From positions 37,200,001 through 37,264,000 of the forward strand of contig OZ287754.1 in the NCBI GenBank assembly GCA_965649765.1: a stretch of 64,000 bases of DNA, read 5' to 3'. The translations under genes and the position numbers were made by a program. The DNA comes from Bispira polyomma (Eukaryota). This document shows, in pieces, positions 8,015 to 58,723 of this stretch; position 1 is the first letter of the stretch; the number at the start of each line of letters is the position of its first letter. The notes beneath the pieces are model-generated. The model ran no database searches. It was not told the origin of the DNA and was given only the letters and a program-made list of their open reading frames with translations.

Positions 8015-8473
8015 CAGTCCCCAACACTCCCAAGCCAATAATAAACTCAATGAGGCTATATAATTTATTATATAAATTGTATAAAATATATAAAATACAC
8101 TTCTAATCTACTGACTATTTACATTTCTTAATAGGTTATGTAATACAGTAATGAATATAATGTGTAAAATTTTAAAAGTAAAGGTCATCTTGAACAAAAT
8201 AAGTTTAAGTTTTAACTTAAGTTATACATGAATGAGTTATCAGTTTAAGTTTGACTGTTAATTTTAAGATTGTTTAAGATTATCCTTAAGCAATACTTTA
8301 AGGTTGCCCTAACCTGAGGGCCACTAAGGTTAACATACGTCATAATTTAAGGTGACCCTAATCTGAGGGGCCTAAATAATTTCCAGATAAAAGTTCAAGT
8401 TGACCTAAACTTGCACAACATGTTTTAAGATACATCAGATCAAGCCTCAAACCCAAACGTAGGGTAATGACAT

Positions 8474-9474
8474 TTATACGGCATTAAGTAAGTGCTGGAA
8501 AGTTGCAGCCACTTCTGTTGAGCCATTATTGCTCTGAATATACGTCCATACACAATCCGACGTCCAGGTGCCATGCTCTTTGATTTGCTGTATAGGTACA
8601 TCTGCTTTATAAGCCAGAGTGGCACCTGAACGTTGAAATGCATGGAATGTATATTAATTCGATGGATAACCCAATTTATTGTTAAGTAGTGCCAATGTTT
8701 TCCTAACTCTTGAATCCGTAGCCACCTGCCAGCACTGAGCCGTCTTGCACTGGAACAATGGATCTTTTTTACCAGGATTGTAAAGATGAAATAACTTTCT
8801 TAAGGCTGCATATGGACAAATGGCAGCAGAACCTAATCGTGGCAATGTCAGTGGCATTTGCACCTTGTCCCTAGTTTGCATAGTCTTTGTCTATTTTAAC
8901 AATATTTTGACTGTGTGCTTCTGAAAGAACACATCTGCACCAGTTAAATGCCTGGTCTGATCAAATTCCCTGATTGCATGTGGTGCGATATTTGAGAGTC
9001 TCAAAAAGCCAAAGAATCCTGTTAAGAAAATAGCCTTGTATATGTGCACATTGCTTATGTAATTGCATTGAGCTACCAATCTTTCAAGCGTGGGCACATC
9101 CATGATATTTCTCTTAACTATAGTATGAGTTCTATTAATCTTAAATGACTTGATAAAGTATTTTATCTTCGGGTGATCAAAGATTACAAATTGTAAATCA
9201 TATACACTATACATGGCTTTAATAGCTGCAACGTAGTTTGCCACCATATGAACTGAAACTTTATTGATAACCAAAAACTCTAGAAATGACATGATACCAT
9301 TTATATTTAAACATTCCAGTGCTATATTAACACAAAGGCAAAAAGCCACAAAAGTTCTAAATAAACCTTGGTAGCAACGCCTAGTCTTTGGTCGAAAGGC
9401 AGTGTGTAATATCTTGCTAGCTTTTATCTGTAGGTTTTGCACTGCTCCAAGCTCGACAACACAAAGCATAGTAT
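8474..9474 (-). pseudogene. tyrosine recombinase of E1 (internal stops)
   Basis: FFGFLRLSN (catalytic R), CP..AL, PLFQ, HGTWTSDCVWTY (H/W and catalytic Y); ORF pieces 8891-9469 and 8654-8881. Confidence 0.9.
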
Positions 9475-9480
9475 CTGTTA

Positions 9481-11932
9481 TTAAAGTGTATTATCAATGT
9501 CTGTTAACTCTAAAGACGTTTTTAACCATACTGGGTTTTCCACCAATGTGTTCAATTCTTGTACATTATCAATTGTATATTTCCAACGTGACAATAGATC
9601 AGCGATTCTGTTGTCTCTTCCCATGACATGTATACATTAGAGCTCAATGTCTGCTACTGCAGCCATATACCATATATTTCTCGCACATGCTGAGAGGTAA
9701 GGGTCTCTAGCCCTGCCAGATTGCAATACATTCACAACTGCATTGTTATCACATTTAATAAGGACCTTACTGCCTGTCCAATATTTTTGGTATAACTTTA
9801 AGGCTACTAGTATGTTAATCATCTCAAGATGAACTATCCCAAGATTTTGAAAATTTGTTGGTATTGGAAGATGATATACAAGACTTCTCCATCTTCCTCC
9901 CAGGCCATAAAGGCAGGCGTCTAATTCCAATGTTTGATCAATGCTTTTATGTCCATACATGGATACACCATTGTACATCGGCAAGAATCTATCGAACCAT
10001 CTCAGGTCCTGTTTGAAATCTTCTGTTAAAATGGCCTTGTTTGGATCTGAAATACCTCTTAACAATTCCAACATCCTGTTTAGGAAACACCTCGCAGGTT
10101 TGATGCATTTGTGAATGTATAACAATTGACCTAATAAGGATTGCAACTGTTTCTTGGTACATTGTTTTTTAATTTTGCCATTGACTGACCGTAGTTCTAA
10201 TTTGCTGTAATTTCTCGTCTGGTATGGCAACTGTGCCTTTTACAGTGTCAATTAGTACTCCTAGGCACACTGCTTGTGTGCTAGGAGACACTAACGTTTT
10301 CTGACTGATTGTAAGTCCTAACTTTTCCATGATTTCATACAAACACTGAAATGAGCGTTTTGCTGAGGTGGGCGTACCGTAACCAAGGAAGTTGTCTATA
10401 TAGTTGATGACGCTGTGGCCATGTAGACGCATGATGTAACGCACGGCGTCACTGACCCGTTGAAAGAATTGGCTGCCGTGACGGCTCCCAAAGGGGAGAT
10501 ACGTGTCTACATAAGTACCTTGCCAATTGAGTCCTAACAAGTCATAATCAATGGGATCGATTTTTAAATGGCGAAACGTGCAACTTACATCCAACTTATG
10601 AATGTGAGTGCCTTTTCCTAATTTGGAAAATTCTTTAGTAAGATCGTCAATAGTGGGGAAGCTGAGCTTAAAATCTGTCCCTAAATAGCTTTTTCTACCC
10701 CAGCATTTACTGAATAACCTTTAGGCCAACTCAAGTCTATAATTACTCGCCTGTTATCTGAATTAAGCTTGTGCCTAGTCATGAACGGTGAATGATGGCC
10801 GTTTGCAAGTGGGTTTTGTTTCAAGGGTCCTATTATCGCCCCATGACTTTTTTCCTCATCAATGTAAACCTGGACATCATTGGGATATTCTATTGCTGAC
10901 TTATGATTGTCCACATCACACTTGAGTTCACATTTCTGATTAAAACCTAAGGGAAACCCAAATTCAATGAGCTGAAGTAATTGCTGATCCCAATAGTCCC
11001 TCAACATAACCTTCCATTGTTTTGTGTTTAATTGAGATGTCACTGGTATTCGAGCCCCCATGAAATTTGGTTGCCCCTTTTCTTTGACTTTCTGATGTAA
11101 CTTAAATGGGCATTGAATGGTTGTGTTTGTTAAGCCGCTACCACTTGGTAGTGTTTACTCAGTGATTGGAATAAATCCAAATTGAAACTCTGATTGTTTT
11201 GTAAACTTAGTGAAGCTGAATGCCAATGATTTGTTTTGCTTTGACACCTTTATTGTGACACAATAACGAGTTAATGAATTTATCGTCCTGAATGCCATTT
11301 ACATCAAACAATAGTTTTGTTTTGGCTGGGCTATTGTCATCGTGCGCCACATTGTTCACTTTTGTGGAGGAAATCCCCCTTCGTGATTGTTGCTTGTCGT
11401 GTTTAACCCTTTCCTGTAAGAGAATAGATTTTTGTGTTGTGACACTACTAACCGCATTGTTTGATTTTGCGTTGAGTGTTTTGACACCCTGTGGTCGTAT
11501 TTGGTGTTTGTTTACTTTACATCGAAAACCCACACTATTTTGCTTAGCTTTAACCATGCTGGCATAAGATCTGGTTTTGACGTCATAACTGACGGCCCGA
11601 TATGTGCACATGACACTTTGCAACGGACGAACGAGTAAACTTTCTATGTCACTTTTTCTCACTTTTTTGCTATAAAAACATCTGCCAGCATGACTTGTGT
11701 CACGCTGTTTACATTTAAAACCAGCAAGGTACTTTGCCTGCTTTGTACTGACATTTGTATCAATTGTATTTACACATTCAGTATTACTAACACTAGAACC
11801 ATTTGTTTTTCCATTCACACTAAAAACATTGACAACCTCTCTGTTTTTGTTTACCTGTAACTGACTGGCCTTACTACTAAACCAGCTGCCCTCCAGTTTA
11901 GGACTACGAGGACAGCTACTTACTCGTTTTTT
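9481..11932 (-). pseudogene. pol (variable linker + reverse transcriptase + RNase H) of E1
   Basis: GFPL, HSPFMTR..RRVIIDLSWP, LPFGSRHGS, YIDN(D), LQSLLG, LDAC..GLGG, HLEMINI, CDN; broken into ORFs 11207, 10681, 10169 and 9637. Confidence 0.92.
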
Positions 11933-12850
11933 GCTTGTGCTTGATTCTTTTTAGCAAACAAGCAATCCTTTTCGGGATGAGCTAAAATGCGACCTGTACC
12001 AATGCAAAATGAACAAATATGTCTATGGAGTTTTCCCCCGACCTCGTGATCTTTGATTTGTTGACAAGCACCAGTCTGGTAAAATTTACAGAACCATGGT
12101 TTTTTGTTATTGTCAAATTTCGCCCAATTTTTTGTCCTTCTAAAATTATTATGGCTGGTGTGCTTTTGTGCGTGAGCCCTGCGAATACGGTCTATTCTAT
12201 TTGTGTCATCCCATATTGATTCTTGAGGCCACGCTACTTTTTGTTTTACCACAACTTCCACTGGACCACCCCTTTTTGACTTAATTTTATTTACATTCTC
12301 ATTACCTGAATTTCTGCTGTCCTTCTCCAATTCCCTTAATCTGGAGTCAACTCTACGTTGGAAAGATGCCGAGGCCCTTAATGTAGCCAAACTAGGGAGT
12401 ACTTGTTCCTCGTCAGAGGATTCACTATCAGATGTACTATTACTGCTATTCTAGTTGTTACATTGAACATTAGTTTTTTGACGAATTTTACTTAACTTCC
12501 GTCCACCACTTTTGAGCACGTCCTTCTGTTGGCTGTTGCTGGATTCCGCTACCTGCTCCTCTACTACATCAAGACGAGAGTTCACCCGCTGTAGTTCCCT
12601 CAATATCTGCAACTGGACGCTATCCTGGACACTATCCCGTTCTGCACTGCTTCCCTCAGCTCTTGCACTATAACTTTGCTGCCCATTTTCGCTAACATTT
12701 ATGTCCAACACTGTATGGGCTTCCAACACCGCCGTGTCATTACTATTGAATTTTTCAGTCAATTTTACACCACGTTTGCACTTTTTTCCCGTTGGTGGAA
12801 CATGTCTTTCCTCACACTTTCTACACAGCGCCTTTGATTGTTTGGGAAAA
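11920..12850 (-). pseudogene. gag-like ORF of E1
   Basis: N-terminal CRKCEERHVPPTGKKC, coiled coil, KIKSKRGG..WPQE, RIRRAHAQ, C-terminal Cys/His cluster ending AKNE*; internal stop and deletion. Confidence 0.8.
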
Positions 12851-13436
12851 TTTCCGAATGTTTACTGTTTATGCTATTATTGTTCATATATCAGCTTCTG
12901 AAAGTAAGAAAATATACACAGGCCCACAGTGCTCCCTTCTCACAGCACCACGACTTGGTTTAACTCGACGAATTTAACTATAAAGCAAGAATGATAAGTT
13001 AGGTTAGACGATCCCTTAATTCCGACCTAAAAAGGTCAGACCAAGCATGAGGCTGTCAGAATGAGCGATCTGTAAACACTGAAAGAGAGACATTGTCTAA
13101 TTCACACAATGTCTGTTGTAGATAACTAAAACACTAAAATAAGTCCTTGTAGTACGTAAAACATAAAATAAAACAGTTTGTAAAAAAACTTGAAGAAAGA
13201 ATTTTAGTTTTCTGCCACACTTGTCTGTGGCCCAATTCAAACTGACTTATTATTAGGTGAAGAACCCTGCTATTTATGGCTACAGCCAATGAGATTGTTT
13301 GACATTTACTTAGCAACATGGAAGTTTGTTTACTTGTTTAGCCATTAAACAATTTTTACCTGTGTATTAGCCTGATACCCTCAGTGAGTTTAAGGTTGTG
13401 TAGGACTGACAAGGGCAATGCCTTAACACTGCCCCC

Positions 13437-20780: not shown

Positions 20781-22144
20781 ATGGCTAGGCCAAGTGCCTA
20801 TTGTAAAAAGTGCGGGAAAAATCACCCAAGACCTGTGGGAAGGCATTGTGTATTAAATATTACCGAAAATGTGGAATCGCCAGTGTGTGATAAAGAATCA
20901 CAGCCAGCCAGAGCTAGAGGACGTCCTCGGAATGTGCCTGATTCGCCAACGCGCTCTGATTCGTCTGGAGCTCAGAAGCTGGATTTCATAATCTCCAAGC
21001 TACAGAAGTTGGAAGATCAGGTAAACCACGTGCAGAGTGAGCAGCGAAGCAGAAGCAGAGTCGAACGCGTCCTGGATGCTGACCGTCGTCGATCCCCCGA
21101 GAGGTCCGGGTATGTTCCCGACAGCAGTCGAACCCGCCGACGTTCCCCTATCTGGTCCCCTGAGAAAGCCGGTTATGTTCCCGATACCAGTCGATCTCGC
21201 AGATGATCCCCTGTTCGAGCAGGGTATGACCTTGCTAATGACGACCCACTGATGGGAGACAAGGACTGGGATCGTTTGATGGATGACATAGATTCTGAGC
21301 GTCGAGGAGGCCTTCCTGTTTTTAACAGATGACCTGAGCGAGCTGCTGCTGAACGGGGCCGTCATGATGATACCAGACCAGCTGCTGACCGAGGACACTA
21401 TAACTGTCAAGATTCAGAAGATCTGCTGCTGCCGAGCCAGCAATTTCTTCGCCAGAACGATCACATACAACGTCAAGTTGACGCACGCCTCAAACACCAT
21501 AAAAACAGGCTGGCCTCCTCACCAGAAGAACATGGTAAGAAACTTAAATCAGGTTTATTGCGTACTGGGGAGCATACTATCAAAGAATATATAAATTGGC
21601 CACATGAGCATTGTTATGTAAATTCAAGTAGAAAGTACCCAGCGTATGATGAACTTACTCCACTCATGTGGTTTCAAGGTTATTTACAGTGTATGTTAGA
21701 AGAAACAGAAAGTGTAGTTAGAACTAATATGATGCAGTACGGGGTACAGTTGATGCGGGATGCCATGGAAACATCATGGTACACTGCCAAAAGTGCACAT
21801 TGTGTATTACTATTAGAGATGGAAAGGGGGAAAGTTGATTGGCATGATATGAGATCTGTTCACGAAATAAGGGCTTGTCTAACACAACGCACTATAAAAG
21901 AAAATAGTCGCGAATCTGCCTCAACTAATTCAGCAAAAAACTCTAAAACAATAAAACTGTACCCTGCACTGCATATAATAAAGGTACTTGTACTCAAACT
22001 AGTGACCATGCATTTGCTGGCATGATTTTAAAACATGGATGTGTAAAGTGTTTTAGGCTTACTGAGAAATTTCATGCACATAGGGAAGTCAATTGCAAGG
22101 GGCCGGAAAACGGGAAAAGCCTCCAGCAGGCATCAAAAGCATAG
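20781..22144 (+). pseudogene. gag-like ORF of E2
   Basis: MARPSAYCKKCGKNHPRPVGRHC, RRSP repeats, KKLKSG..INWPHE..YDELT..W..G, C-terminal Cys/His cluster. Two TGA stops (probably from CGA) and one frameshift. Confidence 0.85.
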
Positions 22145-24283
22145 AAATTAAAACAAGGACTTTTTGGAACACTGCTTGGCTGGAGACTCTTGAAAAAACT
22201 AGAAAATCAAAACTATTTAATGTAAAAGGTAAAATTGTGGGAGATGTGTGTGAGAATATAAAAATCCCGCCCTCCACAGCCCCTACAATTGAAACTAAAA
22301 CAAATAAAACCACACCTCAAGGTAAACAAGTTAGTGTTCAGAAAGTATGTGACATCATTCAGCAAGTCTATTCTCCTCCCCCACAAAGGGGGGATATTGC
22401 TGTGCCTTCTGTGTCCCCACAGTCTATGGTAAATAGCCATTCTTCTTCTGTCAAACATAATGACATTCAGGGCAGCCCCCTTTCAGAACCTATAATTGAC
22501 ATATGTGTAAAGCGGGAATTACATAATACCAATGAGCGACCAAAATTCCACAAGTCTAAAGACAATTTTGGATTTATATGCTTATACAAACCAGTATACA
22601 CTGTTCCAAAAAACTAGGAATAATATTCATTACAAAACTTTGGAACAATGGGCCATTTTAGCCAATAATATGGTTAACCAAGTCGGTGGCCCTAATTATA
22701 TGGGGGCAAGACTCCCAGTCCCGTCAGAGTTAAATATCCCAGCCTGGAGGAATTTATTACAAAAAGACCATGATGTGTTGTTGCCAGAATATCTGGAATT
22801 TGGTTTTCCTCTTTGTATAGAAAAACAAGGTTTTACATTTAATAATGTTGTGAGAAACCATGACTCTGCTCTCCAACACCAAAGTAGTGTAGACGAATAT
22901 TTTGTAACTGAACCCCTCCACAAGGCTATTGCTGGCCCATTTCACACCCCTCCTTTTCAGAATATCCACTTTTCACCAGTAATGACACGTCCAAAAAGTG
23001 ACAATACCCGTCGAATTATTGTAGACTTGTCATGGCCACATGATCAATCATCTGTTAACAATTCTGTGTTAGACGCTGTTTATGATGATCACCCATTTTG
23101 TTTGACTCTACCTAATATTGACTGGTTAGTAGACAGAATTAATGAGCTAGGTGATAATTGCTTATTATATAAAATTGATTTATCTAGGGTGTTTAGGAAC
23201 TTAAGGATAGATCATGCTGATTACAATTATGCAGCCTTAACATGGAAAAATAAAACATATATTGATTTGTCTGTAATGATGGGATATAAACATGGCACGG
23301 CTCTTTGTGAAAAGGTGACTGATTCAATACGTAGACTCATGAGAGATAAGGATTATCTTATCTACAACTACATCGACGACATAGTAGCAGCAGATACTCC
23401 TGAAAAAGCTAACGTCTCTTTTAAAACTTTGTACTCATTAATCGAACATTTGGGTCTTCCCATAAACCCCAAAAAAGTGGAAACCCCATCTGAAACTATA
23501 ACATGTATGGGGATAATTATTTATGCCCGCACCGGAATATTAAAAATCCCTCAACAAAAAATGTCAGACATTCAAGAAATGTGTGAACAATGGAAAGGCA
23601 AAACTAATTGTACACGCAGGCAACTTCAATCATTACTAGGAAAGCTCTTGTATATACACCGGTGTGTAAAGCCCGCACGTCTGTTTTTAAATAGAATGTT
23701 GGCACTACTGCGTTCATCACATCCTAAAACAAATATCGCTCTCAATGAAGACTTCAGGCGTGACCTTAATTGGTTTAGAGTTTTTACTCAGTCATTCAAC
23801 AGTGTAGTTGAAATGCACACAAAAACAACACCCAATTATGAATTCTTTGTTGACACGTCTCTCACTGCGTGGGGGCTGTGTTCAAAAACAATGTATATAC
23901 CTCCACTTTTCCTGACAACACACCTCCAGCATTCACTATTGTTCACCATGAGATGTGGAACATTTTAGTGGCACTAAGAAAATGGGGTCATTTATGTCAA
24001 AACTCAGTGTTGCAAATATGGTGTGATAACATAGCCGTAGTATTTACACTCAACACAGTAAAATAAAGGATGACGCCCTCTCATTGATTGCTAGAGCCAT
24101 ATAGCTTGAGGTCGCTATTTGTAACATCAAGATGCACTTGAAACATGTACCTGGAGTAAAAAATGTAATGGCGGACTGCCTCTCCTGTATGTTTTCACAA
24201 AAACAATTCCCACCAACACTGTTGCAGCACTTGTCGCAAAAATGTTGGTGGCCTATAACAAAGAATGATTTCACCCTGAGTAA
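22105..24283 (+). pseudogene. pol (linker + RT + RNase H) of E2
   Basis: The 478-aa ORF 22532-23968 has EFGFPL, RRIIVDLSWP, KIDLSR, YIDD and LQSLLGKL; RNase H HHEMWNI..CDN follows in a shifted frame. Confidence 0.92.
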
Positions 24284-38011: not shown

Positions 38012-38600
38012 GTTTTGCATACAAAGTATATGTAAACGCTCTGTAATTATTGGCAGTTTTTCTAATTCGTACCCTAATGGGACATTGTACCATTTCCCTT
38101 TTTTTTAATAATCTATTGATAAAAATAAAATGGATGTAAGTTTTAAATCTGGAAATAGAACAATTTCATTCAAAAAAGGGTGTAAAGACCGAAATTAATC
38201 TATTGTAGTGTCAATAAATATTTTTAGGGACCTTAAATACTTGTGGTTGTATTGTACTTTGGGTGTCAGGACATCAGGACATCACTTAGTATAGGTCCCT
38301 ATGGAGAAGTGGTCTGTATAACGAGGACGGTTCTATCACAGGCTTTGACTGTGAGTATATAGGGTTTTGAAAGCTAACGCCCCAGCGTTGGCGGCCTCAG
38401 TTCTGGGGTACCAGGCTGTTCACTACTATGGGATGGATGGGCGAGTATATAAGCCACCCCCCTTTCGAATTCTCCCACCTTTTACCGTTTGTCAGCAGAG
38501 CACTAGGAAAATTCAAATACTGTTTGGGTGACAAAGAGAGTGTTTTATGTTTTATACTGTTACATGGTTTTAGTATTTTAATTCAATATACACTCAAGTC

Positions 38601-39647
38601 ATGCCAGGTAAAAAGATTGTGTTTTGTCCGAAATGTTTGCAAAAACATGAGAGACCTGTTGGAAGAAACTGTTCGGTTAATATGCCTGATATCTCAGGTG
38701 AGGGAGTGGAGGTTGACTCTGGCTCCCATGAGGACTTGCTGGTTCATCCGAACGAGGCTGTATCTAGCGCTATACTACAGCAGTTGCAATCGCTTAGCCA
38801 GGTAGTCGAGAGGATGGATCGGCGAGTCCAGCAGACAGAGGCAGCGTTAGCAGCCAACCTCACCAGTAGTAAGGCAAGTACCGTTCCTTCTAGCATCACT
38901 CCTAGTGTTTCTAAAGAGCTAGTCTCTGCTGACGAAGGTAAAAGCCCACCTACTGGCCCAGATACTGTCGTTCTGAGTGTCGAATTTTTGAGTCAGAACG
39001 CTCAGATTCAGTTGCAAGTCGAACAGAGGTTAAAGGACCTTTGGTCCCTTAATGAAAATCCCTCAGGTAAAATTAAGTCTCAGAAAACTGGGGGGAACGA
39101 GGTTATTGTAAAAAAGGCCATCGAATGGCCCCAGAATTATGTGCTGACCGGCAGTTCGAAGACTCGCCCTAGTTACGACGACTTAACCCTTGTTCAATGG
39201 GTTTGTGGCTTCACCCAGATCGCTCATGAGGAGAAGTCGACTGAAATTAAGAATGCTATGCTAGATTACATGAGTGGCCTCATGGAGGACGTCCAAGACT
39301 TTTCGTGGGAGGTGGCGAAGGCCTGCCACGCGGTAGTCCTAACCAATATGGAAATGGACAAGCTCGGGTGGTTGGATGTTGAGAAGGTCAACCGGATTCG
39401 TAGGGCACACGCCCAACATCATGTAGGTGTGTCAAGATCTATTCATGGGGCGAATGGCCATGCTGTTAGCACTGGCAGTAGTAAAACTAGTCAGAAAAAG
39501 TTGACACCTTGCAGGTTCTTCCAAGAAGGAACTTGCAAGTTCTCTAGCTCACATAATACAGGGGGGCAAATGTATAGGCATAGTTGTGAAACTTGTGGGG
39601 GTAGTCATAAGACCAGTATGTGTAGCAAAAAAGAGGCAAAAAACTGA
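38601..39647 (+). CDS. Gag-like protein of E3 (348 aa, intact)
   Basis: CPKCLQKHERPVGRNC, coiled coil, KIKSQ..IEWPQNYV..YDDLT..W..GF, RIRRAHAQ, CRFFQ..C..H..HSCETC..H..C. Confidence 0.88.
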   Translation: MPGKKIVFCPKCLQKHERPVGRNCSVNMPDISGEGVEVDSGSHEDLLVHPNEAVSSAILQQLQSLSQVVERMDRRVQQTEAALAANLTSSKASTVPSSITPSVSKELVSADEGKSPPTGPDTVVLSVEFLSQNAQIQLQVEQRLKDLWSLNENPSGKIKSQKTGGNEVIVKKAIEWPQNYVLTGSSKTRPSYDDLTLVQWVCGFTQIAHEEKSTEIKNAMLDYMSGLMEDVQDFSWEVAKACHAVVLTNMEMDKLGWLDVEKVNRIRRAHAQHHVGVSRSIHGANGHAVSTGSSKTSQKKLTPCRFFQEGTCKFSSSHNTGGQMYRHSCETCGGSHKTSMCSKKEAKN

Positions 39648-42131
39648 GGGGCCACTGCTTGGATGCAGTGGATAAAAAGGTAAAAAATTTTAAGGTTGTA
39701 AATAGAACTGTCTATGGCACAGGCTTCAAAGATTTTCATTTGTTTGAAAAAATGTGTATCAGAAAATGTGTAAATATATGAAGGTCAAAAGGCCTAATGT
39801 TAATTATAGTGATGCTTTAAAAAGTACTGCTAGTACCAGAAAATCAATGTTTGTATGTTTGGGGTTGACAGGTTTAGCTCTGGAAAGGTGACACAAAAGG
39901 GCAGGTTTTGCCAACCACAAAAGGTTGGCAGAGCTGAACTCAAGAATAATGTTGACACCTCTGCTGCCATATCTATTCAAAGGTTTGAAAAGTTAACACC
40001 TGTAATTGGCACCTCCATTCAAGTGGCTAAGAAGGTGACACCTATTGTGAAGCAACCCCCATGCACAAAGCAACAGGGCATGGAGACAAAGGTGTTAGAA
40101 AATCGATTCAGAGGGGGGGGGGCGAAAAGAGCCACGTCAATGAAGCTAACTGTGGCCTTCAGCTTAACAACCGGTTTTCCGCATTGGCACAGATACCTGT
40201 GGAGGACAATGCAGTCATTGTGAGGGTCGTTCGCTCTAGTAACACGCCTGGTAACAATGGGGGCTTTGCAAAGCACCAAGAGACAAGTACTTGCGCAGAA
40301 CGTGTCAATGAAAATGTTGAAACCTCTGATAAGTATTCGTGTGCTTTAAAGCACAAGAAAAATAAAAGCTGCAGAAGGCGGCCTCGAATCAAACACACAA
40401 AAAATGGCAGGACCAGAGTAGTCATGCTTATGGATTTATTCCTCTCTCGGCTTTGGGCAGTGAGATTGCCGACCATGGTGGGGGAGGGCACAAACTATCC
40501 ATATTACAAATGCATAAGAAACTACGTCTTGATGGCAGGCATAATTATACTGGCCTCCAGATTCCTGTCCATTCTCAATTAAAAGCTGAAACATGGGGAA
40601 AGTATTTACAAACCTACTGGGATTGGCAAGTGCCTCTCCTTATAAAATACAGATTCCCTCTTGATGTGTGTCGAAAAATTTGTACCAAGTCGAATGAAAC
40701 TAACCATAAGTTAGCAGAGGAATTTCCTCAACATGTAGACGCCTATATGAAGGAAAAATGTGGCTTTGGGGCAATGCTTGGTCCTTTTGACACTCCACCA
40801 ATTCAGAATTTGCATTGTTCCCCTTTAATGACCAGACATAAACCCAACTCGATTAACAGACGTGTGATTGTGGATTTGAGTTGGCCTCAGGGGGCTTCAG
40901 TAAATGCAGGTGCTTCTCCGACTTCGTATTTGGGTGTCGATTTTTTACTGTCTTACCCTTCCATTGATCATCTTACTACTGAAGTGTCTAAATTGGGTAA
41001 GGGTTGTCAGATATTTAAAATAGACATGAGTAGGGCGTTTTGCCATGTCCCCATCGACCCTGGTGTCATTGACCTCTTAGGGTTGAAGTGGAAATCTTAC
41101 TATGTCGATAAATCGCCGCCGTTCGGTTATTTGAATGGCAGTACTATTTTTCAACGAATTTCGGATGCAGTGCGTTTCATAATGCACTCAGAAAATCATA
41201 ACGCCACAATTATATCGACGATTTTTTTATGCGTATCACTTCCCAGCAAAATTCAGAAAACGTTCATAAGACTGCAAGAATTGCTTGCTGAACTGGGTCT
41301 TACAGTTAGCCAGAAAAAATTGGTTCCACCCAGCACTGAGGTAGTCTGCTTAGGCATAATAATTGACACAGTCAAATGCACAACTTCTATCGCATCTGAA
41401 AAAATGACAGAAATTCAGAGCAAGTGCAGGGATTGGGCTTCAAAAAACTATTGTACCAAGAGAGAACTACAGTCTTTACTGGGCCTTTTGCTATATATCT
41501 CTAAATGTATTAAATATGCTCGGGTTTTTTTGAATAGAATGTTGGAACTGCTACGAGATAATCACAGTAAAAACAAAATTGTAATAAGTGATGCATTCAG
41601 ACGTGATTTAATTTGGTTTAGAACTTTTGCAGAGCAGTTCAATGGTGTTTCCTTTTTCTTACATAAACCCATATCAGGCGAGATACAATTGGATGCCTGC
41701 CTCACAGGCATTGGGGGATTTATGGAAATCAAGTATACCAAATTAAAGTTCCTACATGTATGATAGAGTATAATATAGCTTCTCTTAAAATGTTGAACAT
41801 TTTGGTAGCAATGAAGTTATGGGTCCAAAAATGGAAGGGTCAGAGAATTTTAGTAAGATGTGACAATAAGGCAGTAGTCAGTGTCTTACAGACAGGCCGT
41901 ACTAGAGACCCCATATTGGCCACTTATACCAGAAACATATACATGTTAGCCAGTAAGTTTGACATTGAAATTGTTGTAGTCCATATTCTAGGTAGAGAAA
42001 ATCAAGTGGCTGACTTACTTTCCAGATGGGCCGAGACAGAAAGTAACCACCTATTATAAAATCAACTGGCTGGACCAATTCAATGGCTTCCTGCCCCTGA
42101 AAATTTACTTCATGTGAACACTCTTATATAG
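39638..42131 (+). pseudogene. pol (linker + RT + RNase H) of E3, frameshifted
   Basis: RRVIVDLSWP, KIDMSRAF, LQSLLG, LDAC..GIGG, CDN, NQVADLLSRW; the YIDD region is frameshifted near 41215. Confidence 0.9.
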
Positions 42132-42155
42132 CAGGTTTTAGTTTTTCTTTTCCAG

Positions 42156-43141
42156 GCACTCACCCTGTGGGTCTGGCTCTGATGAGACGGGCTTGTGATA
42201 GGCTGAACTCAGCTCTTACTCCTGCCACTAATAAAGCATATGACAGAATGTTCCGACAGTTCCTAGCTTTTGGAGCCTTTATGTCATGGCCTTCCCACAA
42301 GGTGACTATGTTGCAAAATTTAGCATATTTAGAGTTTCTAAATTTCAATGGTGTTTCGGCCTCTCAGGTAGTAAATCACATCTTGGCTGTGAAGGCAAAA
42401 TGTGTTATGTTTCATATAGATGTTCAAGTATTTTCTGATCAGAGAATTTCTTATTTCACTAAAGCCTTGGCTATGCATAGACCTTTACAAGCGAAATTGA
42501 AGTCAAGTTTTGATGTGCACTTGCTTAGGGCTCTCATTAGTAAATGTGATAGTACTTACATAGGCCAAATTTTGAAGGCTGTTTATTTGACAAGCTTTTT
42601 AACATTTTTGCGTTTGTCCAATCTGTGTCCTCATTCAATGGGGTCATACTCTCCTCTTAAGCAATTAGCTAGAGCTGATGTTTTGTTTAAGCCAGGGTAT
42701 GCAGTCATCATGGGTAAATGGTCTAAGACGCTGCAGAGAAATGATACAGTTCGGTTGCTAACCATCCCAAGTATACAAAATTCAATTCTTTGTCCTGTTC
42801 AGGCCTTGAAAGCTGTGTTAACCACCTCACCTAAAGGAAAAAGTCTCCCATTATTTCAGTTTAAACTCCATGGCTCGTGGGTTCCACTAACAGACACACG
42901 GGTGCGAAGGCACCTCAAAAATGTACTATCCTTACTTGGTACTCAATACTCTGGCTTGACCTTTCATGCCTTGCGACGTTCAGGTGCCACATTTGCGTTT
43001 AACAATAATGTCAAGATTCAGGATATTCAAAAACATGGCACCTGGACGTCGGATTGCGTGTGGCGTTACATCTCAGACTCTGCTGATGCTGGTACTCAAG
43101 TTGCAGATTCCTTTAAAGATGTCCTACAAAACACCTACTAG
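42156..43141 (+). CDS. tyrosine recombinase of E3 (intact; predicted second exon)
   Basis: FLRLSN, HALRRSG, HGTWTSDCVWRY; strong acceptor tttttcttttccag at 42155. Confidence 0.9.
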
Positions 43142-44852
43142 TTTGGGGCTTGGTGGTCTAACTTAAATATTTAGGTTTAAGATCTGTCAAAATAACACAA
43201 AATATTATACCCTTTTTTGGGCATAAGGTCCCCCCCCTTCATTATATTAGTACATATTGTACTCAAGTATCTAAAGTTCGACTTAAAACCCTAAGTCAAA
43301 CTTTAGACTAGCATAAATTTAAAGTTTAATCGCTTAAGTTTGCACTTAAATTAAAATTTCTACCAAACTTAAACTCTTAACCTTAAACTCAAATCCTCTA
43401 AGTTTGGACTCAAAGTCAACTTTGGCAAACTTATACTCTTAAACTCATTGTACGTAAGGTCACCTAAACGTAAGCTTTGTATAAGCTCAAGGCCTTAAAC
43501 TCACTTGAGTTAAGGGGCCCTTATGCCCACAACAGTATTACGTATTCTACAAAGAAACTGTATATAAAAAATATGCTAGTAGTAGAAATCATATATATAT
43601 AATAAAGTATTTAACCGCAATCTTTTCTTACTATGAGTTGTTGGTTAAATATCTATCATTTGCCCACACACCGAGGAACTGATATTGAACACACCCTAAC
43701 ACCAGAATACCCTTAAAGGTCTGATTAAATGGCCATTGCTGCAATTTGTACAACACTCCATTTTGTTCTAGAAGGCTGATCCTAGTGTTTAAAGGACACA
43801 GACATAGTGAGACCCTGGCTGGAAAGTTTACACCTGCGGACTCATTGATTACATACACACACGGAAGGAATCAACTGACAAATGACTAAATGTCCCCACT
43901 CCATCAAGGTTTACTCTACTTAATATGTTAAGCCAAATGAACAATGTCACCTAAGAAAAGCAACTACATAAGGAACAGGGTAATTAAGCAACTAAAGACA
44001 ATTCCAGAGAATACATTCTATCAAATATAAAGGCTGGTCAACCTGCAATATCAGTAGATGATTTTGTTTTTTTTAATTAAAGATAGACAATCCCAAAATA
44101 AAAATAAGGTTTAAGACCATACTGATCCTAGCTAAGAACTTGGCATTACTTAGAACCTAAAACAGTGTAGTGTTAATTAGAGTAATAAACTATACATACA
44201 GACGGTATTAGTTCTTAGAGACAGGGAATCTCTTGTAATAAACTCTATATATTATCAACAACGACTGAGACACAATGGTCCCAAACTCAGCTGCAGATAT
44301 AGCTCCACTGCTTACAGCCCACGAAAAACTGTGATAAATTCTTTAAGAAACAAGAGTCATCTTTCTTTACCACAGCAAGGAGGTAGTATTGAATTACTAC
44401 TGTAAATAAAACAGCAACAAGATATGGAAATAAATATTTATCCTTAGCTGTTATCAATAAAATGTATTGTTACAAACATGTACAGCAAATGTCAATTTAG
44501 TGGCTACATAGGGCAAGTACCTTTGTGTCAGGGAATGCAGTCTTTAATCTCTAAATGTGAGATCCTGCAAATAAGGTGTCATATTTAGGATATAAATATA
44601 GCTTTTGTATTTTCTGGTGAAGGCCACAGGAACCAAGTCCATGTAATATACATTTACAGGTCAATGAAACATGAATTGATTCAACAAAATTAGAGGTTAA
44701 TTTTATTTGTTGCTTAATGAGGGGAATAAAATGTTGTCTTTAGTTTAAAAAGGAAATGTAAACATTTTCTTTCACATTCAAGATATGAATGTTTAAATTT
44801 AATATTATCTACTGACAAATTTGTTGTTAAGTTGATATTTATAAATTACATT

Positions 44853-50100: not shown

Positions 50101-52075
50101 TACCCCATCCCAACTTACAACTGTATCTATGTTTTTTTGAACATCTCAATTGGCTGATTGATATTTTTTTATTCATTTTTTTTGTATACAAATTCAAACA
50201 AATACATGTAACAATACAATTGCAGTTACACAAAACAGTAAGACAATGTACAATACAATAATATACAATTACATACAAAAGTGTCTATTTGTTCAAGATA
50301 TTTCCAAAATATTGTTTAAATTGTTTCATAACATCCCTTGAGTTATTGAGGTCACAGAAAAGTTGAACTTTACTTTTCTTAATTAGCATATATTAAAAAA
50401 GAGATTATTTAGTTTGTTTGCATTTTCTTGTTTATAAACCATTTTCCAACTAAGAGTAAATAGTTTATTAAAAGTAATGTTTCATCTTGAGTACAAACCA
50501 TATATAATAAAACCTCACATACTCTAAATCTGAATTTTAAATCCAGGTTGTTTGGCTAATTGATTTGGTTGTTTGCTTTAGAAAACGCCTCACATAATCG
50601 TTAAAATGTATAGTACAGTACAATGACACAATTTTTCTAGCATCCCAGGGGGTAGTGGATCCCATGACTTTAAAAAGTTTAATAACTAATCAAATATGAC
50701 CAGAGCCAAAACAGTTACAAATCGAGATTTCAGGATATTAAAAAACTCTTGTGTTTCCATTTCCAGGAACACCAACATACTATAACGGCCCACATACTGA
50801 TGTCACCGAGCCCCCTTAATACTCACCCCCTCCCCTTCCTTGTCCTATACACCAGCCTTTCCCCCTTCCCACTTGACTCTGTGTGATATTCAATAAAAAG
50901 ATGACAGATGACTTGCTCAGATAAAGCTCCTGGAACTGATAAGAGTACAGAGTTAGCTACCATAAGTCAGACCGCCAGTCACAATGGACTGCTACTTAGC
51001 AGTTCTCTCCACCCCTGGCATACCTCTGTGGTTCTTGTAGTCTGGGACTTGTACAATCCTCAAGCTAATGTTAAGTCCTAAATATGCCCAGCATAGGTCA
51101 CAATACATAGAGTTAGAATAGCTGGCTTTTAAACTCTGACCTGAAGTAAATAAACCTCAAGGTTATGCTACAAGAATTACGTGGAGATTAAAATTTTATT
51201 AGAGATGAATATATAAAACCAATAGGGGTATAAGTACTCTAACTTAATTTAACTCAGAGGTCTAAAGTTAGCCAATCAAAATCGAGAATTGAAGTGACGT
51301 GGGTTTTTAGACCTTAACCTACTAAATGCTGTTTTGAGGAGAGTTAATTGTATATGTATTTCTTGCTATTGGTGCTCTCAGTATCAGAATTACAATGCAT
51401 GCATCAATGAAAGAGACAAAAGAGTTGACTTAGTTTTTGAGTATTTAAGAAAAATCAGAATATTTTCCTAAATAAGTGGAAATATTTCCGGAACTAATAA
51501 GGACACTGAATCCATGTAAAGGTCACCCAGATATTACAGTTTTTCTTTTATTAACTTTTCAGTCAAGGGCCCAGACATTTATGTACACTTAATAATACAA
51601 TTACAAGTCGGTGATTTATTAGGATCTGTGACAAAAATGCCATCGGGGGCAAATAATTCATCTGAAGCATGAATTGTGTTGGTGTTGGTGCAAAAGCCAC
51701 AAATTAACCACTAAATGATGCCATAACTAATGTTGTCACTGAAGCATTTGCCACTGCGGTCTACTGCTTGACATGTTCACTTGCAGAGTACTTGGTTTTG
51801 AACCCAGATAAGGGTAGATAAACAACGGTTCTAAGTTTCTCGGTGGGTGTTCAGATCAGCACTTTAATTTACTAACTCAAACATAACCAGTGATGCGTTT
51901 ATATACTTTATTATTATATATATAATCTAATACTACTGAGGTATATATACAGTTCTTTAACAAGAGTAAAATGAACTCTCTGGGCATAAGGTCACCTTAA
52001 TTTAAATATGTTTATGAGTTTAAGTTTTGACTTTTAGAAAATTGATTAAAGTACAAAGCTAGAGTTTCACTTTAA

Positions 52076-52406
52076 TTATTATTATTACACAACATTTATA
52101 TAGCGCTTTATATATATATATATTACTCTAAAGCGCTTTCTCATGGGCAGCCACTATGGGCGCCGAGGTGCTTGAGGATGACTATTTATCAACGTCCCCA
52201 AGGATCTTTAATCTGCCACTGGAGATATTACTCAGTGACAGAGGCCCGCCATTTTAAGTGGTCAACCGAGCCACTAGGTAAACTTGTGTTCACATCTTGC
52301 CTAAGGATGTTATCCCACCATATTAAACTAGCAGCCAGAACTGGGGATAGAAGCAGGGACCTTCTGATCGTCAGACCAACACCTTAACCACTAGACCATG
52401 GGGGAT
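52076..52406 (-). mobile_element. tRNA-derived SINE with L2-type tail inserted in the E4 3' region
   Basis: Minus strand ATGGTCTAGTGGTTAAGG (A box), then body, then aagcgctttagag..aagcgctatataaat and (TAA)n tail. Confidence 0.8.
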
Positions 52407-53293
52407 CACAAGTGAGGTTTGACTTAAAGTAACCTTAAGTAAAGTTTGACTTAAGATTTGAAGTCGAACTTTACCTGTATGAGTACAATATATACAGTTC
52501 TAATGTAAGGGGACCTAATGCCCACAAAGGTAAAGTGTAAAATGTGAAAAGTAGTGTAAACTGAAAAGATGTTTTATTTATTTTTTTCCAGCTGCCTGCA
52601 AGCTTAGACAGACCACCAAATCCCAATAAGTAGCAGGTGTTTTGTAGTATATCTCTGAAGGAGTTTTCAGGGTTTGAAATATATCGCCAGACTCAATCTG
52701 ACGTCCAGGTGCCCTGGTTTTGGATATCTTGAATTTTGACATTATTATTAAAAGCAAATGTGGCCCCTGAATATTGAGACCCAAGCAATTGCAGGATATT
52801 TTTGAGATGCTTGCGCACACATGTATCAGTAAGAGGTACCCATGAATTTTGTAACTTATACTGGAATAACGGTAGATTTGTCCCCTTAGGTAAGAGCGCT
52901 AATACCCCTTTCAAAACTTGCACAGGACACAAAATTGAAATGGGGATGTTTGGTACTGAGAGAAGTCTAACTGCATCTCTGGATTGCATAGTGTTTGACG
53001 ATCTAATGACTAGTACAGCATACGCTGGCTTGAAAAGTACATCAGATCTGGCTAACTGCTTCAGAAGAGAGAAGGACCCCATTGAATATGGACATAAGTT
53101 TAGAACACAACCTTAGAAACGTAAAGAAACTAGTCAAATAGACAGCCTTGAAGATTTGGCCCATATATGTACTGTCACATTGTTTAACCAGTTTTTTAAG
53201 TAGCTCAATGTTAAACACTGACTTACGTTTGACTTGCAAATGTCTATGCATGGCTAGAGTTTCAGTAAAATAACTGATCCTTTAGTCAGATAA

Positions 53294-53482
53294 TAGACTT
53301 GCTTACAAGTCTTTTCTGTTGGTGAAGACTATATGACTGCATTTTACAAGTTTCTATTCTATTCGAAAGGTGTCAGCACTGGTGTCATTATAACTGCCAG
53401 CTTCTTTATTTAACCCAAATGTACACAGGGTTATAGTTAAAAAATCATAATACCCTCATTGAAGGACCTTGCACAAGGTCTA
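53294..53482. mobile_element. MITE with TAGAC..GTCTA ends and 9-bp TSD, in the E4 YR
   Basis: TSD gtcagataa (53285-53293) / gtcagagaa (53483-53491). Confidence 0.8.
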
Positions 53483-53651
53483 GTCAGAGAAGGGTTTAAC
53501 ATCCAGATGTAAGAGAGTACATTTAGCCTTAACGGCTGACAAGTGGTCAAACTACCTGAGACATGGATAAGCCATTAAAAGTTAAAAATTCTAAACAAGC
53601 TATTAGATGCAACACATTCACCTTGTGGGCTGGCCAACACATAAAGGCCCC

Positions 53652-54099
53652 TAGACCTTTCGCAAGGTCCTTCAATGAGGGAATTATGATTTTTTAACTA
53701 TAACCCTGTGTGGATTGAAAGACCTTGTTCACTCACCTGGAAGTACATGGAATCACGTATCGGTAAAAAAACAATTATGTACTCACAACTTTTTTGACTG
53801 CCAGTCTGTTTAGTATAACTCGCACATCCCATACTGTTTATATGACAACACTAAAATCCATGTGCTTGTTTTTAAAAAACTAAACGGGCTTTAGACCTTG
53901 TGCAATGTCCTTTAATGAGGGCATTATGATTTTTAACTATAACCCTGTGTGGATTGAAGACATTTTATATTTGGGATTAAATAAGGAAGCTGGCAGTTAT
54001 CAAAACACCAGTGCTGACACCTTTTATAGAGTAGAATGAGAACTTGTAAAATGCAGTCTTACAGTGTTTACCAACAGTAAAGATTTGTAAGCAAGTCTA
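53652..54099. mobile_element. second, inverted and partly dimeric copy of the same MITE family, in the E4 YR
   Basis: TSD aaaggcccc (53643-53651) / aaaggccct (54100-54108); the left end is repeated internally at ~53892. Confidence 0.8.
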
Positions 54100-57000
54100 A
54101 AAGGCCCTAAAAGTCAGACTTAATCTAAACATTATGTCATAAGCTTTGTTGGTAGCAGGGGCGAAGGCGGACTGCAGCCTCTCATTTGCACTTTTCATCA
54201 AAGCCAGGTCCACAGGGTGAGTATCTGCAAATAAACTACAAATTGCTATATAAAACTGTTCACATTAAGTAAGTTATTAGAAGTGGACAACCACTGCACA
54301 GGATCAGCTAGGCTAAAAGCAATTGGTGATTACTCTCAGTTTCCTTTCACCTGGACAACAAGTCAACAATTTTGTTCTTCCTGCCTAAAATAAGAATTAC
54401 CATAATTTCAATATCGAATTGACTAGCCAACATGTAAATATTCCTGTTATAGGTTGCCAAGGTCGGATCTCTTGTACGCCCTGTCTGCAAAACGCTGACC
54501 ACTGCCTGGTTATCGCATTTGACCAGAATATCTTTACCTCTTCAGGCTTCCATCCACAATTTAGTGGCCTCCAGAATATTAAGCATTTCAAGATATGTGA
54601 TGTTCATGTCAGCCATCTGGGCCAGAGTGTCTATTTGATATACTTGTTTTGAATAAATCCCCCCATCCCAGTGAGATAGGCATCTAATTCGATTTCCCCA
54701 TTTACAGGTTTATGGGCAAAAAAATGACACACTATTAAACTGGTTAGCAAAGGTTCTAAACCAATTAAGGTCATGTTTAAATTCTTCAGTAATTTTGAAG
54801 CGTTTTTTACTGTGATTATCACGTAAGAATTCCAGCATTCTATTCAAGAATACCCGGGCATATTTTATGCATTTTGACACATACAATAGCAAACCTAACA
54901 AAGTCTGTAACTCTCTTTTTGTACAGTAATTTTTTTTTTTTAATTCATTACATCTACTCTTTATCTATGGCAGCTTTTCAGGCGGAATAGTTGTGGTGCA
55001 GTTTTCTGTATTTATAATAATGCCAAGACAAACGACTTCAGCGCTGGGGGAACTAATTTTTTCTGACTTACAGTTAACCTCAGCTCCTTGAGCAATTCTT
55101 GTAAGCTGAGATAAGTTTTTACTAGGAAGGAAAATGCAAAACAAGTCATCGACATAATTGCGGACGTTATGATTCTCTGACTTTATTATGAAATGTACTG
55201 TGTCCGAAATTCTCTAAAAAATGGGTTTGCCGTTCTGATAAATGAACGGCAGGGACTTATCTATGTAGTATGAGTTCGATTTTAGGCCCAATAAGTCAAT
55301 ATCGCCAGGGTCAATAGGGACGTGACGAAACACCCTGCTGACATTGACCTTGAATATATTGCACCCCTTTCCAAGTTTAAGCACTTCCTTAGTAAGACTG
55401 TCAATGGACGCATATGAAAGTAAAAGTTCGACATCAAGATACGAAGTAGTGGATGCCCCACATTTACTGAAGCGCCTTGAGGCCAACGCAGATCTACAAT
55501 GGCTCGCCTGTTAACTGATTTAGGCTTATGCCTGGTCATAAGTGGAGAACAATGCAAATTTTGAATTGGTGAAGTGTTGAAATGACCGAGTATTGTTCAA
55601 AAAGCACATATTTCTTTCATATATGTGACTATATGATCAGGGATTTCATCTGCCGTACTATGATTTTTTTCATCTGACTCGGTTTTACTTGTTCTAGATA
55701 CATCCAAAGAAAAACCATATTTAATTAGAAGGGGCAACAGCCAGTTCCAATAGCCTTTCAGATAGTTTTTCCATTTGTCTGGATGTAATTGTGAGTGTAC
55801 AAGAATCTGTAGCCTGCTGTGGTTTAATCTACTGAGCTCTGAGTTTTTTGTGCATTTCCAATATGATCAATTTGCTTCCCTCCTCACCCTAATCCACAAT
55901 GTTATGGCCCAGGGCTGAGAGGTGGTAAAGCCATAATTGTTATCACTCTGGTCCTGCCTCTTTTTATATGTCACATTTGAGGCTGCCTTTTGTAACAATC
56001 GTTTTTTATTTCGCTTCTGCTTCAGCGCCCAGGAGTATTTGTCCAAATTTGCCATGTGACCTTCAGATATTTACACATTTTGTTTGTTACACTCTTTTCC
56101 AACAACTGATACTCTCTGAACTCTGAATTGTGGACAGTTCTGGATATTTACACTATTTTTGTCCACAGCATTAACGCAGTGGCCCCTTAGTTTTTTGTTA
56201 CCTTTTTTCAAACACACACTTGTCCTGTGATTTCCATCACATGTCTCAGAAGTATGCTTATAGAGTTGCCCCCCTGTATTGTGGGTACTGGGGTAGTTGA
56301 ATGTTCCTTCTTGGAAGAATCTGCAAGTAACCCGATCCTTTTTATGACTTGTCTTTTTAGAATTCAAACCCCCAGTACGACCATTTGCCCCAAAAGAATT
56401 TTGAGAGACCGAAATGTAGCGTTGAGGGTGTGTCCGATGTATTCTGTCGACTTTGTCCACGTCCAACCAACTTAGTTTGTCCATCTCCATATTTGTGAGG
56501 ACGACGGCATGACAGGCCTTAGCCGCTTCCCAGGAGAATTTCTGTGCATCCTCCATTAGACCCCTATATAATTGAGCATGGTATTTTTAATTTCTAATGA
56601 CTTTTCTTCATGAGGGATGCAAATAAAGCTGCAGACCCACTTCACCAGCGTGAGGTCATCATAACTGGGCCACGTTTTAGCACTGCCTGTCAACAAATAA
56701 TTTTGTGGCCATTCTGCTACTTTCTTAACAACCACATCGTTACCCCCACTTCTCTGAGACTTTAGTTGTTTACCTGCCGAGGGCGTTTCGTTAAGGGTTT
56801 TAAGGTCTCAACCTGAAGCTGAATTTAAGCGTTATCCTTTAAAAATTGGGAACTGGTATAATGGTTTCCTGGCCTGAACTTGAAAAGCTCTTATCCTCGT
56901 CAACAGAACTAGCACTAGCCATGTTATTAGAAAAAAAAGTGTCTGACTAGCCTGTTTGCTGATAAGGTTTCCAGCCAGCGCTGCCTCCGTCTGTTGAACC

Positions 57001-58723
57001 CGTTGATCCATCCTCTTAACGGCCTTACTTAATGACTGACGTTGCTTAAATATAGCTGTGGACACCGCTGCAGCAGGCTGAATCAATGGGTCCTCGTGAC
57101 TCGAGCCAGCACTGTCTTTATCCTCCACAGCATCAATAACAACACTACAATTTCTTCCCACGGGCCGTTCATGCTTTTGAAGGCACTTCGGGAAAAATAG
57201 TATTTTAATTCCAGGCATGATTAGAGCGTGCTACTAAAAAGGTTTAAAAACACATTAACAACAATTTTTAAAACACGACTCTTTGTCCTAAAACTATAAT
57301 TTTTTGAAATACTAGTTGTTTCTGTTGATGAGCGGTTAAAAAGGCGGGAGAATTTGAAGGGGAGGGGGCTTTTATACTCGCCCATCTTTCCCATAATGAT
57401 GCTGAGTTCGTTCACTTACAAAATGGTAACACACTGATCTCCCAACTCACTGGACTCCCAATCCCTAATATGTGTCCTGGAAACATTGCAGTAGATTGGC
57501 TGATGCTTGTCAGAGCAGAAAATCCTAACGAATTGCCCTATTCTGATTTCCTCTTACACTTCCCATTGCGATATAACACAAACTTGTTTAAGCGACGTGA
57601 AATCCAAACTGAATTAAGCCAGAGTGTTAGCTCTGCACCACAGAGGCCCTAGGTATGTTAGGAATCTGGACCTTTTTCAAATAATTAGAAACAAATTTAG
57701 TAACCAACTGATGATTATGGTAACATTGGTTGTTATAGTCGCTCAGGTCAATAACCTTCTCAAAACACAAATGAAATAAGTAAATATTATATGAAGAGCA
57801 TATTTGGATCCACATTCGGGGGTTACAAGCATGAACTGTAACCTACAATTAATTGCCTAAAGGCCCAGGACCAAGATTATTTAGACTTTGAGTGACAGTG
57901 TCAATGTTTGGATGACAGACTTTGAAATGGGTAGCTTGTATCAAACCACCAGCAGGTCCTCTGCCTGTCTCATATGTACCGCTTGCAACCACACCACGTG
58001 CACTATAATCGGCTTCACATTGTTCAGGCCAGCACTATTTAGATAACCAGATACCACAGGAGAAGACGTGAAACTCCAGAAACAGATGTACATGACCTTC
58101 CTACAACATCATTGCTCACATTTTTCCCCGAGACACCACTCCCATTGTCCTGGCCAGTGATGTTTAGGCGACTGGAAACACCCAGCTATGACGTCAGACC
58201 ACCAACAGCAGATACACTTTGAGTGATCCTGGAAACTATACACATAGAGACAGTATTGCAGGCAGTACTGATGCTATATCAACTCACCATGGGATGTGAT
58301 GTCATCGTGACTGTGGCAGTGGTTGTGCTTAACATGTGTGGTAAGGGATAAAATTCGGGCAGTACTCTGCTACCTTGGCATGCAAGCTTTAGAGATATGT
58401 GACATATCTGAGTCCTTAACCTGAATTAAAAAAGAAACAGAGGAACATATATTGACTAATACACATAATTATGTGATAACATTGTGATGAGCAAATGTGG
58501 AAAGGTTCAAGACAAACAAGAATAGTCTTTCAAAGGCTGGTCGGAGACAGGTGAAGGCCACTTTATGTATTAGAGATATTTTAATTATCAGCTATTGTAA
58601 AATACTCCAAAAAGTAGCAAAATGGCCGTTAAGTTTCCACATTGCATAACATGTAGATTTAACTGTCAAGCACTAAGCAGTATGTAGTCAAGTTTATTAA
58701 GTGTAGGTAAGTAATAGTTAAAT

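Follow-up and report, generated by a model that had tools for sequence, protein, structure and literature searches.

How a retrotransposon of the kind found here makes its reverse transcriptase (RT) is the question raised by a gag-like open reading frame that occupies 38601..39647 on the forward strand of the window, by which we mean the whole 64-kb stretch of DNA analysed. Its last two codons, Lys-Asn, lie in the heptamer A_AAA_AAC at 39638-39644, the gag stop TGA comes directly after, and the region encoding RT and RNase H lies behind a frame that has just closed. On sequence evidence we consider it highly probable that the heptamer and the hairpin behind it form the -1 ribosomal frameshift signal of a Ngaro-type tyrosine-recombinase (YR) retrotransposon, giving an uncleaved Gag-linker-RT/RNase H protein. 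The first-pass annotation of the window had read the site as a -1 frameshift signal joining gag to pol, and that reading is supported by the phase of the heptamer, the relation of the frames, conservation, and covariation in relatives. The copies in the window taken alone make a case that is suggestive only; the relatives elsewhere in the genome are decisive.

Decayed Ngaro-type elements in the window

Four related elements, E1 to E4, lie within the window, with ends taken from copy alignments: E1 at 13436..8015 on the reverse strand, E2 at 20313-25879 and E3 at 38368-43681 on the forward strand, and E4 at about 57450..51834 on the reverse strand. E1, E2 and E3 each carry a gag-like ORF, RT, RNase H and a tyrosine recombinase, the Pfam matches for RNase H being weak in E1 and E3; E4 aligns with E3 at 66-71% identity, and all four copies are decayed. 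The contig that carries the window is chromosome-scale, and the animal genome to which it belongs measures 1.04 Gb.

In E3, whose features all lie on the forward strand, ORF1 encodes an N-terminal Cys/His motif, a coiled coil, a helical domain and C-terminal CCCH-type zinc fingers. The pol region (39638..42131) comprises a basic linker of ~270 codons, RT and RNase H; it is in -1 relative to gag in relatives and is broken here by indels, comparison with a genome relative placing indels of this copy at about 39747, 39857, 40088 and 40368. The YR ORF is found at 42156..43141 (PF00589, E 6.8e-4). Repeat A1 forms the left end (38368..38520) and recurs as A2 in complete genome copies, and repeat B1 forms the right end of the copy (43153..43681), A2-spacer-B2 being absent here.

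E1 to E4 are decayed Ngaro-type YR retrotransposons, a name that stops short of firm Ngaro membership. Like Ngaro-like elements (order DIRS), they have a gag-like ORF, RT/RNase H and YR in this order on one strand, no methyltransferase (MT) and, in genome relatives, the split direct repeats of an A1-ORFs-B1-A2-spacer-B2 layout. In three families, A1 and A2 of one copy share 94-99% identity, as do B1 and B2, and 6 of 28 E3-family, 2 of 21 E1-family and 1 of 21 E2-family copies (9/70 in total) continue past the B end into A2. Unlike Ngaro-like elements, they have A2 and B2 about 270-950 nt apart, with spacers of about 270, 455 and 950 nt, and the direct adjacency of B1, A2 and B2 in the Ngaro wording of PMC7192593, in the part of that source available, was not found. 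The definitions in the available parts of PMC9210276, PMC3783388 and PMC8547959 agree with the elements except for the A2-B2 spacer. Since this spacer departs, we use the label "Ngaro-type". Atlas neighbours of the RT were RVT_1 clusters of Mollusca, Cnidaria and Basidiomycota; the many molluscs among them and a repeated SSFVRIG peptide precursor in the window point to a host within the Lophotrochozoa.

The window copies are without terminal repeats, and neither inverted terminal repeats nor an ICR were found in them. No MT family was detected after RNase H at E<=1, and an 818-codon natural pol frame stops ~30 residues past the RNase H match. DIRS1-like and PAT-like elements likewise have YR, RT/RNase H and a Gag-like ORF1; in contrast, the elements here have no inverted terminal repeats, ICR or MT domain, which rules out the former, and the missing MT domain rules out the latter. 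An LTR retrotransposon or retroviral Gag-Pol was also ruled out, aspartic protease and DDE integrase not being found and a YR standing in place of the integrase.

The slippery heptamer at the end of gag

The heptamers that had been reported for the four elements were all found at their positions: A_AAA_AAC in E3, AAAAAAC in E1 (11932-11926) and E4 (56196-56190), both on the reverse strand, and GGAAAAC in E2 (22105-22111, forward strand). That they stand in the correct phase could be confirmed directly in E3, where 355 open gag codons run into A_AAA_AAC_TGA, and in E1, where 173 open codons run into A_AAA_AAC_GAG_TAA; the gags of E2 and E4 carry lesions upstream and their phase is taken from relatives. 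The part of PMC5009743 available counts A_AAA_AAC with the heptamers most prone to shifting, gives 5-9 nt as the usual spacer, and lists G_GAA_AAC, the form of the E2 family, as a natural X_XX exception (G_GA).

A stem lies behind the heptamer in E1, E2 and E3, and a mismatched one in E4. In E3, a spacer of 7 nt that contains the gag stop (39645..39651) leads to the stimulator hairpin CCACTGC-TTGGAT-GCAGTGG (39652..39671), both on the forward strand. The E1 signal (11883..11932, reverse strand) consists of A_AAA_AAC, a 7-nt spacer and an 11-bp stem with a 14-nt loop, that of E2 (22105..22185, forward strand) of G_GAA_AAC, a spacer and a long-loop stem, and that of E4 (56163..56196, reverse strand) of A_AAA_AAC and a hairpin of the E3 type with one mismatch. 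AAAAAAC and GGAAAAC words occur 65 times in the window; six have a nearby strong helix (score of at least 17, spacer 3-12), and three of these six are the gag ends of E1, E2 and E3.

The reading frame of pol

Behind the heptamer the -1 frame is open for 241 codons in E1, 170 in E2, 47 in E3 and 41 in E4, compared with 2-12 codons for frame 0 and 4-14 for frame +1. An open -1 frame, as described at first pass, therefore stands in E1 and E2, and in E3 it falls short of RT in this copy. A -1 frame that is open and has no conserved start is a property of the relatives, not of the decayed window copies E3 and E4. Gag is intact, with 300 or more open codons ahead of the heptamer, in 58 natural copies; in these the RT motif D[LI]SWP lay in -1 in 42, in +1 in 8 and in frame 0 in 3, and was absent from 5. 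Natural copies thus bear out, without recourse to a consensus, the expectation that pol lies in -1 without an ATG of its own. The frame was open from the heptamer all the way to RT in 33 of the 58, and the 11 copies with RT in another frame count as evidence against the proposal. E3-family relatives reach 475-818 codons in -1. At 37 loci the -1 frame was open through the end of the fetched stretch (at least 90 codons) in 23, and the +1 frame was closed within 23 codons in every one. The linker is basic and poorly conserved and has no Pfam match. The first-pass annotation had seen no protease, and none appeared in eight natural -1 frames by Pfam match, with D[ST]G present in only one of them.

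Pol could instead have a start codon of its own in the linker, used through leaky scanning, reinitiation after the gag stop or an internal promoter, the heptamer and hairpin then serving otherwise, for example in packaging. Copies of the E3 family do share Met at -1 codons 43 and 47, and one lineage (L189, L192, L195) has an AUGA stop-start overlap; however, L198, a close relative of that group, is without AUGA, and between lineage representatives the first Met wanders from codon 3 to codon 301, being absent from the open stretch in 10 of 30. In one lineage it comes at codon 301, beyond a conserved GFIP motif at codon 243. The frame moreover stays open upstream of the first Met, and a separate start leaves the exact phase of the heptamer and the synonymous-site constraint unexplained. 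We regard such a start as improbable.

Still less probable is a pol mRNA made by alternative splicing, from the donor in gag to an acceptor near the gag end. A conserved gag donor and a strong acceptor before YR make splicing plausibly in use in these elements, but in 6 of 10 copies scanned from -300 to +900 nt around the heptamer no pyrimidine-rich acceptor was found, and the matches in the other four differ in place and phase. No splice acceptor common to the copies was found before RT.

Conservation of the heptamer in relatives

In the families of the window, the heptamer is retained in 42 of 44 members of the E3 cluster, 17 of 20 of the E2 cluster, and 10 of 17 and 3 of 4 of the E1 clusters. 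Two foreign Gag queries led to 60 loci of younger families, 53 of which have the heptamer in phase at the gag end, the remaining seven having premature stops, lesions or no callable frame. Forty further loci were picked by eye so that their gag lengths differed, with the gag ends still unseen; the heptamer was in phase in 37, and by inspection the three misses retain the A-run and stem out of phase.

Linker-sequence clustering gave 33 clusters and, after three deletion variants had been dropped, 30 lineages; copies without an alignable junction and loci found twice were left out. The lineage representatives comprise 28 with A_AAA_AAC, one with A_AAA_AAU and one with G_GAA_AAC, the junctions of L121-L220 having been admitted to the lineage tables only when the heptamer was present. 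The codon before Lys-Asn specifies six different amino acids, yet it ends in A throughout the A_AAA group. Gag codon usage would lead one to expect this spelling of x-Lys-Asn at about 4.5%, and the excess over that expectation therefore points to a constraint on the nucleotides, that is, on the RNA. The lineages are of common ancestry, and their counts are thus not independent.

Of 25 Gag homologues encoded in other assemblies, 19 have KN or KNx as their C-terminus; for three such homologues the best match in this genome reaches only 50-59%, and they are therefore not from it. More distantly, 63 of 150 representatives have matches that reach the zinc fingers, the other 87 being left out as their matches end before them; 29 of the 63 end in KN or KNx, with ~3% expected, and 27 have no KN in the last 11 residues. 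No DNA of another species came from two scans of metagenomes and one of viral sequences.

A polymerase or the reverse transcriptase might also slip on the A-run and add one base, so that no ribosome need slip. Runs of A are indel-prone, the run is out of phase in 3 of the 40 loci, and some genome matches have open frames of 898-1239 aa through gag. However, the run is just 6 A long, and 4 A in the E2 family, and its codon phase and 5-9 nt spacer to a 3' stem suit the geometry of the ribosome as given in the available part of PMC5009743. We judge slippage of this kind to be as improbable as the alternative splicing of pol.

The downstream stem

The stems described at first pass were confirmed in E3 (CCACTGC/GCAGTGG, spacer 7, fold z -2.48) and in E1 (11 bp, z -2.80); the long-loop fold of E2 is not unusual against shuffles (z -0.95). 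In E4 the mismatched hairpin does not form (z -0.29). The E3 hairpin has a folding energy of -13 kcal/mol and its helix a p of 0.055 against shuffles. Across 33 cluster representatives, 27 have a fold z below -2 at +0..45 nt after the heptamer, compared with 0-9 of 33 in non-overlapping windows. In 27 of 30 lineages the best helix follows a spacer of 5-9 nt, and the helix reaches p<=0.05 against shuffles in 21 of the 30 representatives, the nine that fall short including that of E3.

In the class of the E3-type hairpin (20 related sequences, gapless alignment), 86.5% of cells are paired and covariation is 0.201 against 0.079 in shuffled alignments (0/500), slid controls giving 0.045 or less; this covariation is inflated by relatedness. 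The core is invariant, the loop is free and two-sided change occurs at three flanking pairs. As the core CACTG/CAGTG pairs barely vary, they are neutral for covariation, and the commonest compensatory change (C-G to G-C), which splits the KN-stop from the KNx-stop group, may be a single event. In the E1-type class, one of nine pairs shows two-sided change and the changes are mainly G-U/G-C. Other lineages have three further stem types, two with their arms swapped. The position and pairing of the stem are thus kept while its sequence turns over.

No pseudoknot common to the 30 lineages was found, and the loop of the E3 hairpin is too short for one; second stems that might form one occur in L181/182/187 (9 bp) and L162 (7 bp) and are not common across lineages. 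Hairpins of 7-8 bp are modest stimulators, and the frameshift rate could be low. The peptide KLRGHC..AVDK, noted earlier as conserved between E3 and E4, is more readily accounted for by translation of the hairpin sequence than by a motif of the protein. Conservation purely of protein (Lys-Asn at the end of Gag, His-Cys..Ala-Val in Pol) that merely mimics a signal is highly improbable. A Cys codon is retained in many lineages at -1 position 7; however, the heptamer hardly ever shows a synonymous alternative, third codon positions of the stem are fixed where loop residues vary, lineages with other stems encode unrelated peptides, and such conservation gives pol no route of expression.

Proposed route to Gag-Pol

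With a -1 frameshift, most ribosomes would end ORF1 at the stop just past the heptamer and release Gag. A minority, holding tRNA-Lys and tRNA-Asn on A_AAA_AAC, would stall at the hairpin that lies ~7 nt downstream, and we infer that these slip back by one base and read on through the basic linker (150-295 codons) into RT and RNase H. The product would be a Gag-Pol fusion made at a low ratio and co-assembled with Gag; as no protease was seen, it is probably not cleaved. Frameshifting would in this manner fix the ratio of Gag to RT and tie RT to the Gag-RNA particle.

Expression of the recombinase

As judged from the DNA, the YR is likely to be fused to an N-terminal portion of Gag, the mRNA for this fusion being made by splicing. 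A candidate phase-1 donor, CAG|GTAAAA, lies inside E3 gag at 39066..39072, and a pyrimidine tract with a candidate acceptor at 42132..42155, between the pol stop and YR, ends in CAG in every listed E3-family copy (both on the forward strand). Twelve clusters gave a match: in 10 of them the majority of copies have a GT-A donor at a conserved Gly codon, and in an eleventh it stands one codon later, whereas the background use of GGT at gag Gly codons is only 343/1148. An AG acceptor directly precedes YR in every copy listed for E1 to E4, and the YR of E2 is without an early Met. The Gag-N/YR splice put forward in the first-pass annotation thus gains support at the level of DNA, from the conserved phase-1 donor and the acceptor. 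Three contig runs of unknown kind from one study, aligned to E3, gave 53 joints, and the predicted donor-acceptor joint is not among the 15 of these that were listed, which is evidence neither way.

A frameshift from RT/RNase H into YR was proposed by Poulter and Butler (2015), as quoted in the available part of PMC13003380. In E3 there is an in-phase A_AAU_UUA near 42100, and many E3-family copies are without it or have its spacing shifted by 1-2 nt. The distance from the pol stop to the acceptor is 6, 7 or 8 nt among E1 subfamilies, and the YR of E2 is in +1. Since spacing and frame vary between subfamilies, a pol-to-YR frameshift fails here and was rejected as a general route; no conserved slippery site or frame was found, and an acceptor is present instead.

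Joining the two routes, we offer tentatively a scheme of three products for animal Ngaro-type elements, as far as found new to the order DIRS, which may well be correct but which we would not yet call probable: Gag, an uncleaved Gag-linker-RT/RNase H made by -1 frameshifting, and a spliced Gag-N/YR. If the scheme is true, Gag sequence would carry both enzymes into the particle, without a protease and possibly without a capsid fold of the retroviral kind. It would then take the place of the frameshift from pol to YR guessed at in print, and gag-pol frameshifting would come to include retroelements that lack a protease, in many genomes of invertebrates.

Comparison with known systems

Sites of the A_AAA_AAC type serve the gag-pro junctions of MMTV and HTLV and the ORF1a/1b junction of astroviruses. 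The elements here resemble retroviral and Ty3/Gypsy (Metaviridae) gag-pol in the class of heptamer, the 5-9 nt spacer, the 3' stem and a pol in -1 behind a Gag-like ORF. In contrast, they have a YR instead of a DDE integrase and no detected protease, their recombinase lies outside the frameshift product, their stems are mostly simple hairpins, and the ORF1 model gave no capsid match. That model had a pLDDT of 73 and a pTM of 0.41, and whole-model fold searches gave no Foldseek match at E<=0.001 and a best VIA Z of 4.8; nothing is therefore concluded on likeness to capsids.

The part of PMC5009743 available places pol in -1 in 28 of 51 animal LTR retroelements and does not mention DIRS, Ngaro or tyrosine recombinase. 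ORFs of YR elements are described, with no mechanism given for RT in the parts available, in PMC3266345, PMC6681497, PMC8547959, PMC3783388, PMC7192593, PMC4157794, PMC9210276, PMC13003380, PMC13465315 and 10.1101/2021.01.25.428050. In this partly available literature, with Repbase outside its scope, no gag-pol slippery site is described for YR elements, although one may already be suggested in the paper that founded the Ngaro group or in the review of 2015. The mechanism itself is textbook and is no surprise to a specialist in recoding; the element class is, as far as found, a new setting.

How the second and third ORFs of YR retrotransposons are expressed is a largely untested field, and a signal of 35-80 nt is short enough to go directly into a reporter assay. 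The 30 lineages, which combine one heptamer with several designs of stem, form a natural panel for the turnover of stimulators. A Gag-Pol predicted to be unprocessed bears on whether control of Gag:Pol by frameshifting is older than protease and capsid, or does not depend on them. For annotation, the gag-pol 'frameshifts' in these elements are not to be taken as lesions.

Elsewhere in the window, where Rfam gave no match at any position, there is a repeated SSFVRIG unit, which we take to belong to a peptide precursor.

Repeat ends of the Ngaro-type elements

Among copies of the E1-E3 families that reach the end of repeat B, only nine of 70 were found to carry the A2-spacer-B2 segment beyond it, while the remaining copies, and all of the copies in the window, have the arrangement A1-ORFs-B (example loci L010:6798-8216, L036 and L074). 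This shortage of the distal segment could be explained by recombination between B1 and B2, or by action of the tyrosine recombinase (YR) on the internal B|A junction. The spacer itself (approximately 270-950 nt) was devoid of a long ORF in four E3-family copies. Within repeat B, a short inverted repeat (GGGCATAAGG / CCTTATGCCC) accompanies a TTAAG-rich tract (window 43210-43530, + strand), and E4 likewise carries both.

Variation at the gag end

Downstream of the slippery heptamer, the predicted structures of related loci L181, L182 and L187 include loop pairing with downstream sequence over 9 bp with a 3-nt linker, and that of L162 a similar pairing over 7 bp; these are possible pseudoknot stimulators of frameshifting. 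In some copies gag remains open in frame far beyond its usual stop, as in genome matches with open frames of 898-1239 aa and in L218, probably through one-base changes within or upstream of the A-run.

Lesions and neighbouring features

The gag of E1 lacks approximately 225 nt that relatives carry (window 12213, - strand), and the YR of E4 is interrupted by a small element (53294-54099) whose inverted repeats are nested. LINE-like endonuclease/RT pieces flank E2 on both sides (18191-20233 and 25924-26586, + strand; RVT_1, E = 1.2e-25), and E2 appears to have inserted into a LINE. A 437-codon open frame (30218-31531, - strand) encodes numerous SSFVRIG repeats, with basic residues on either side, and gave nothing above cut-off in a Pfam search; it resembles an FxRIamide-type neuropeptide precursor. 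Finally, a frame at 61576-61941 (+ strand) contains the motif 'AIDGKH..C...GS.YFNYKG', presumably that of Harbinger-type transposases.
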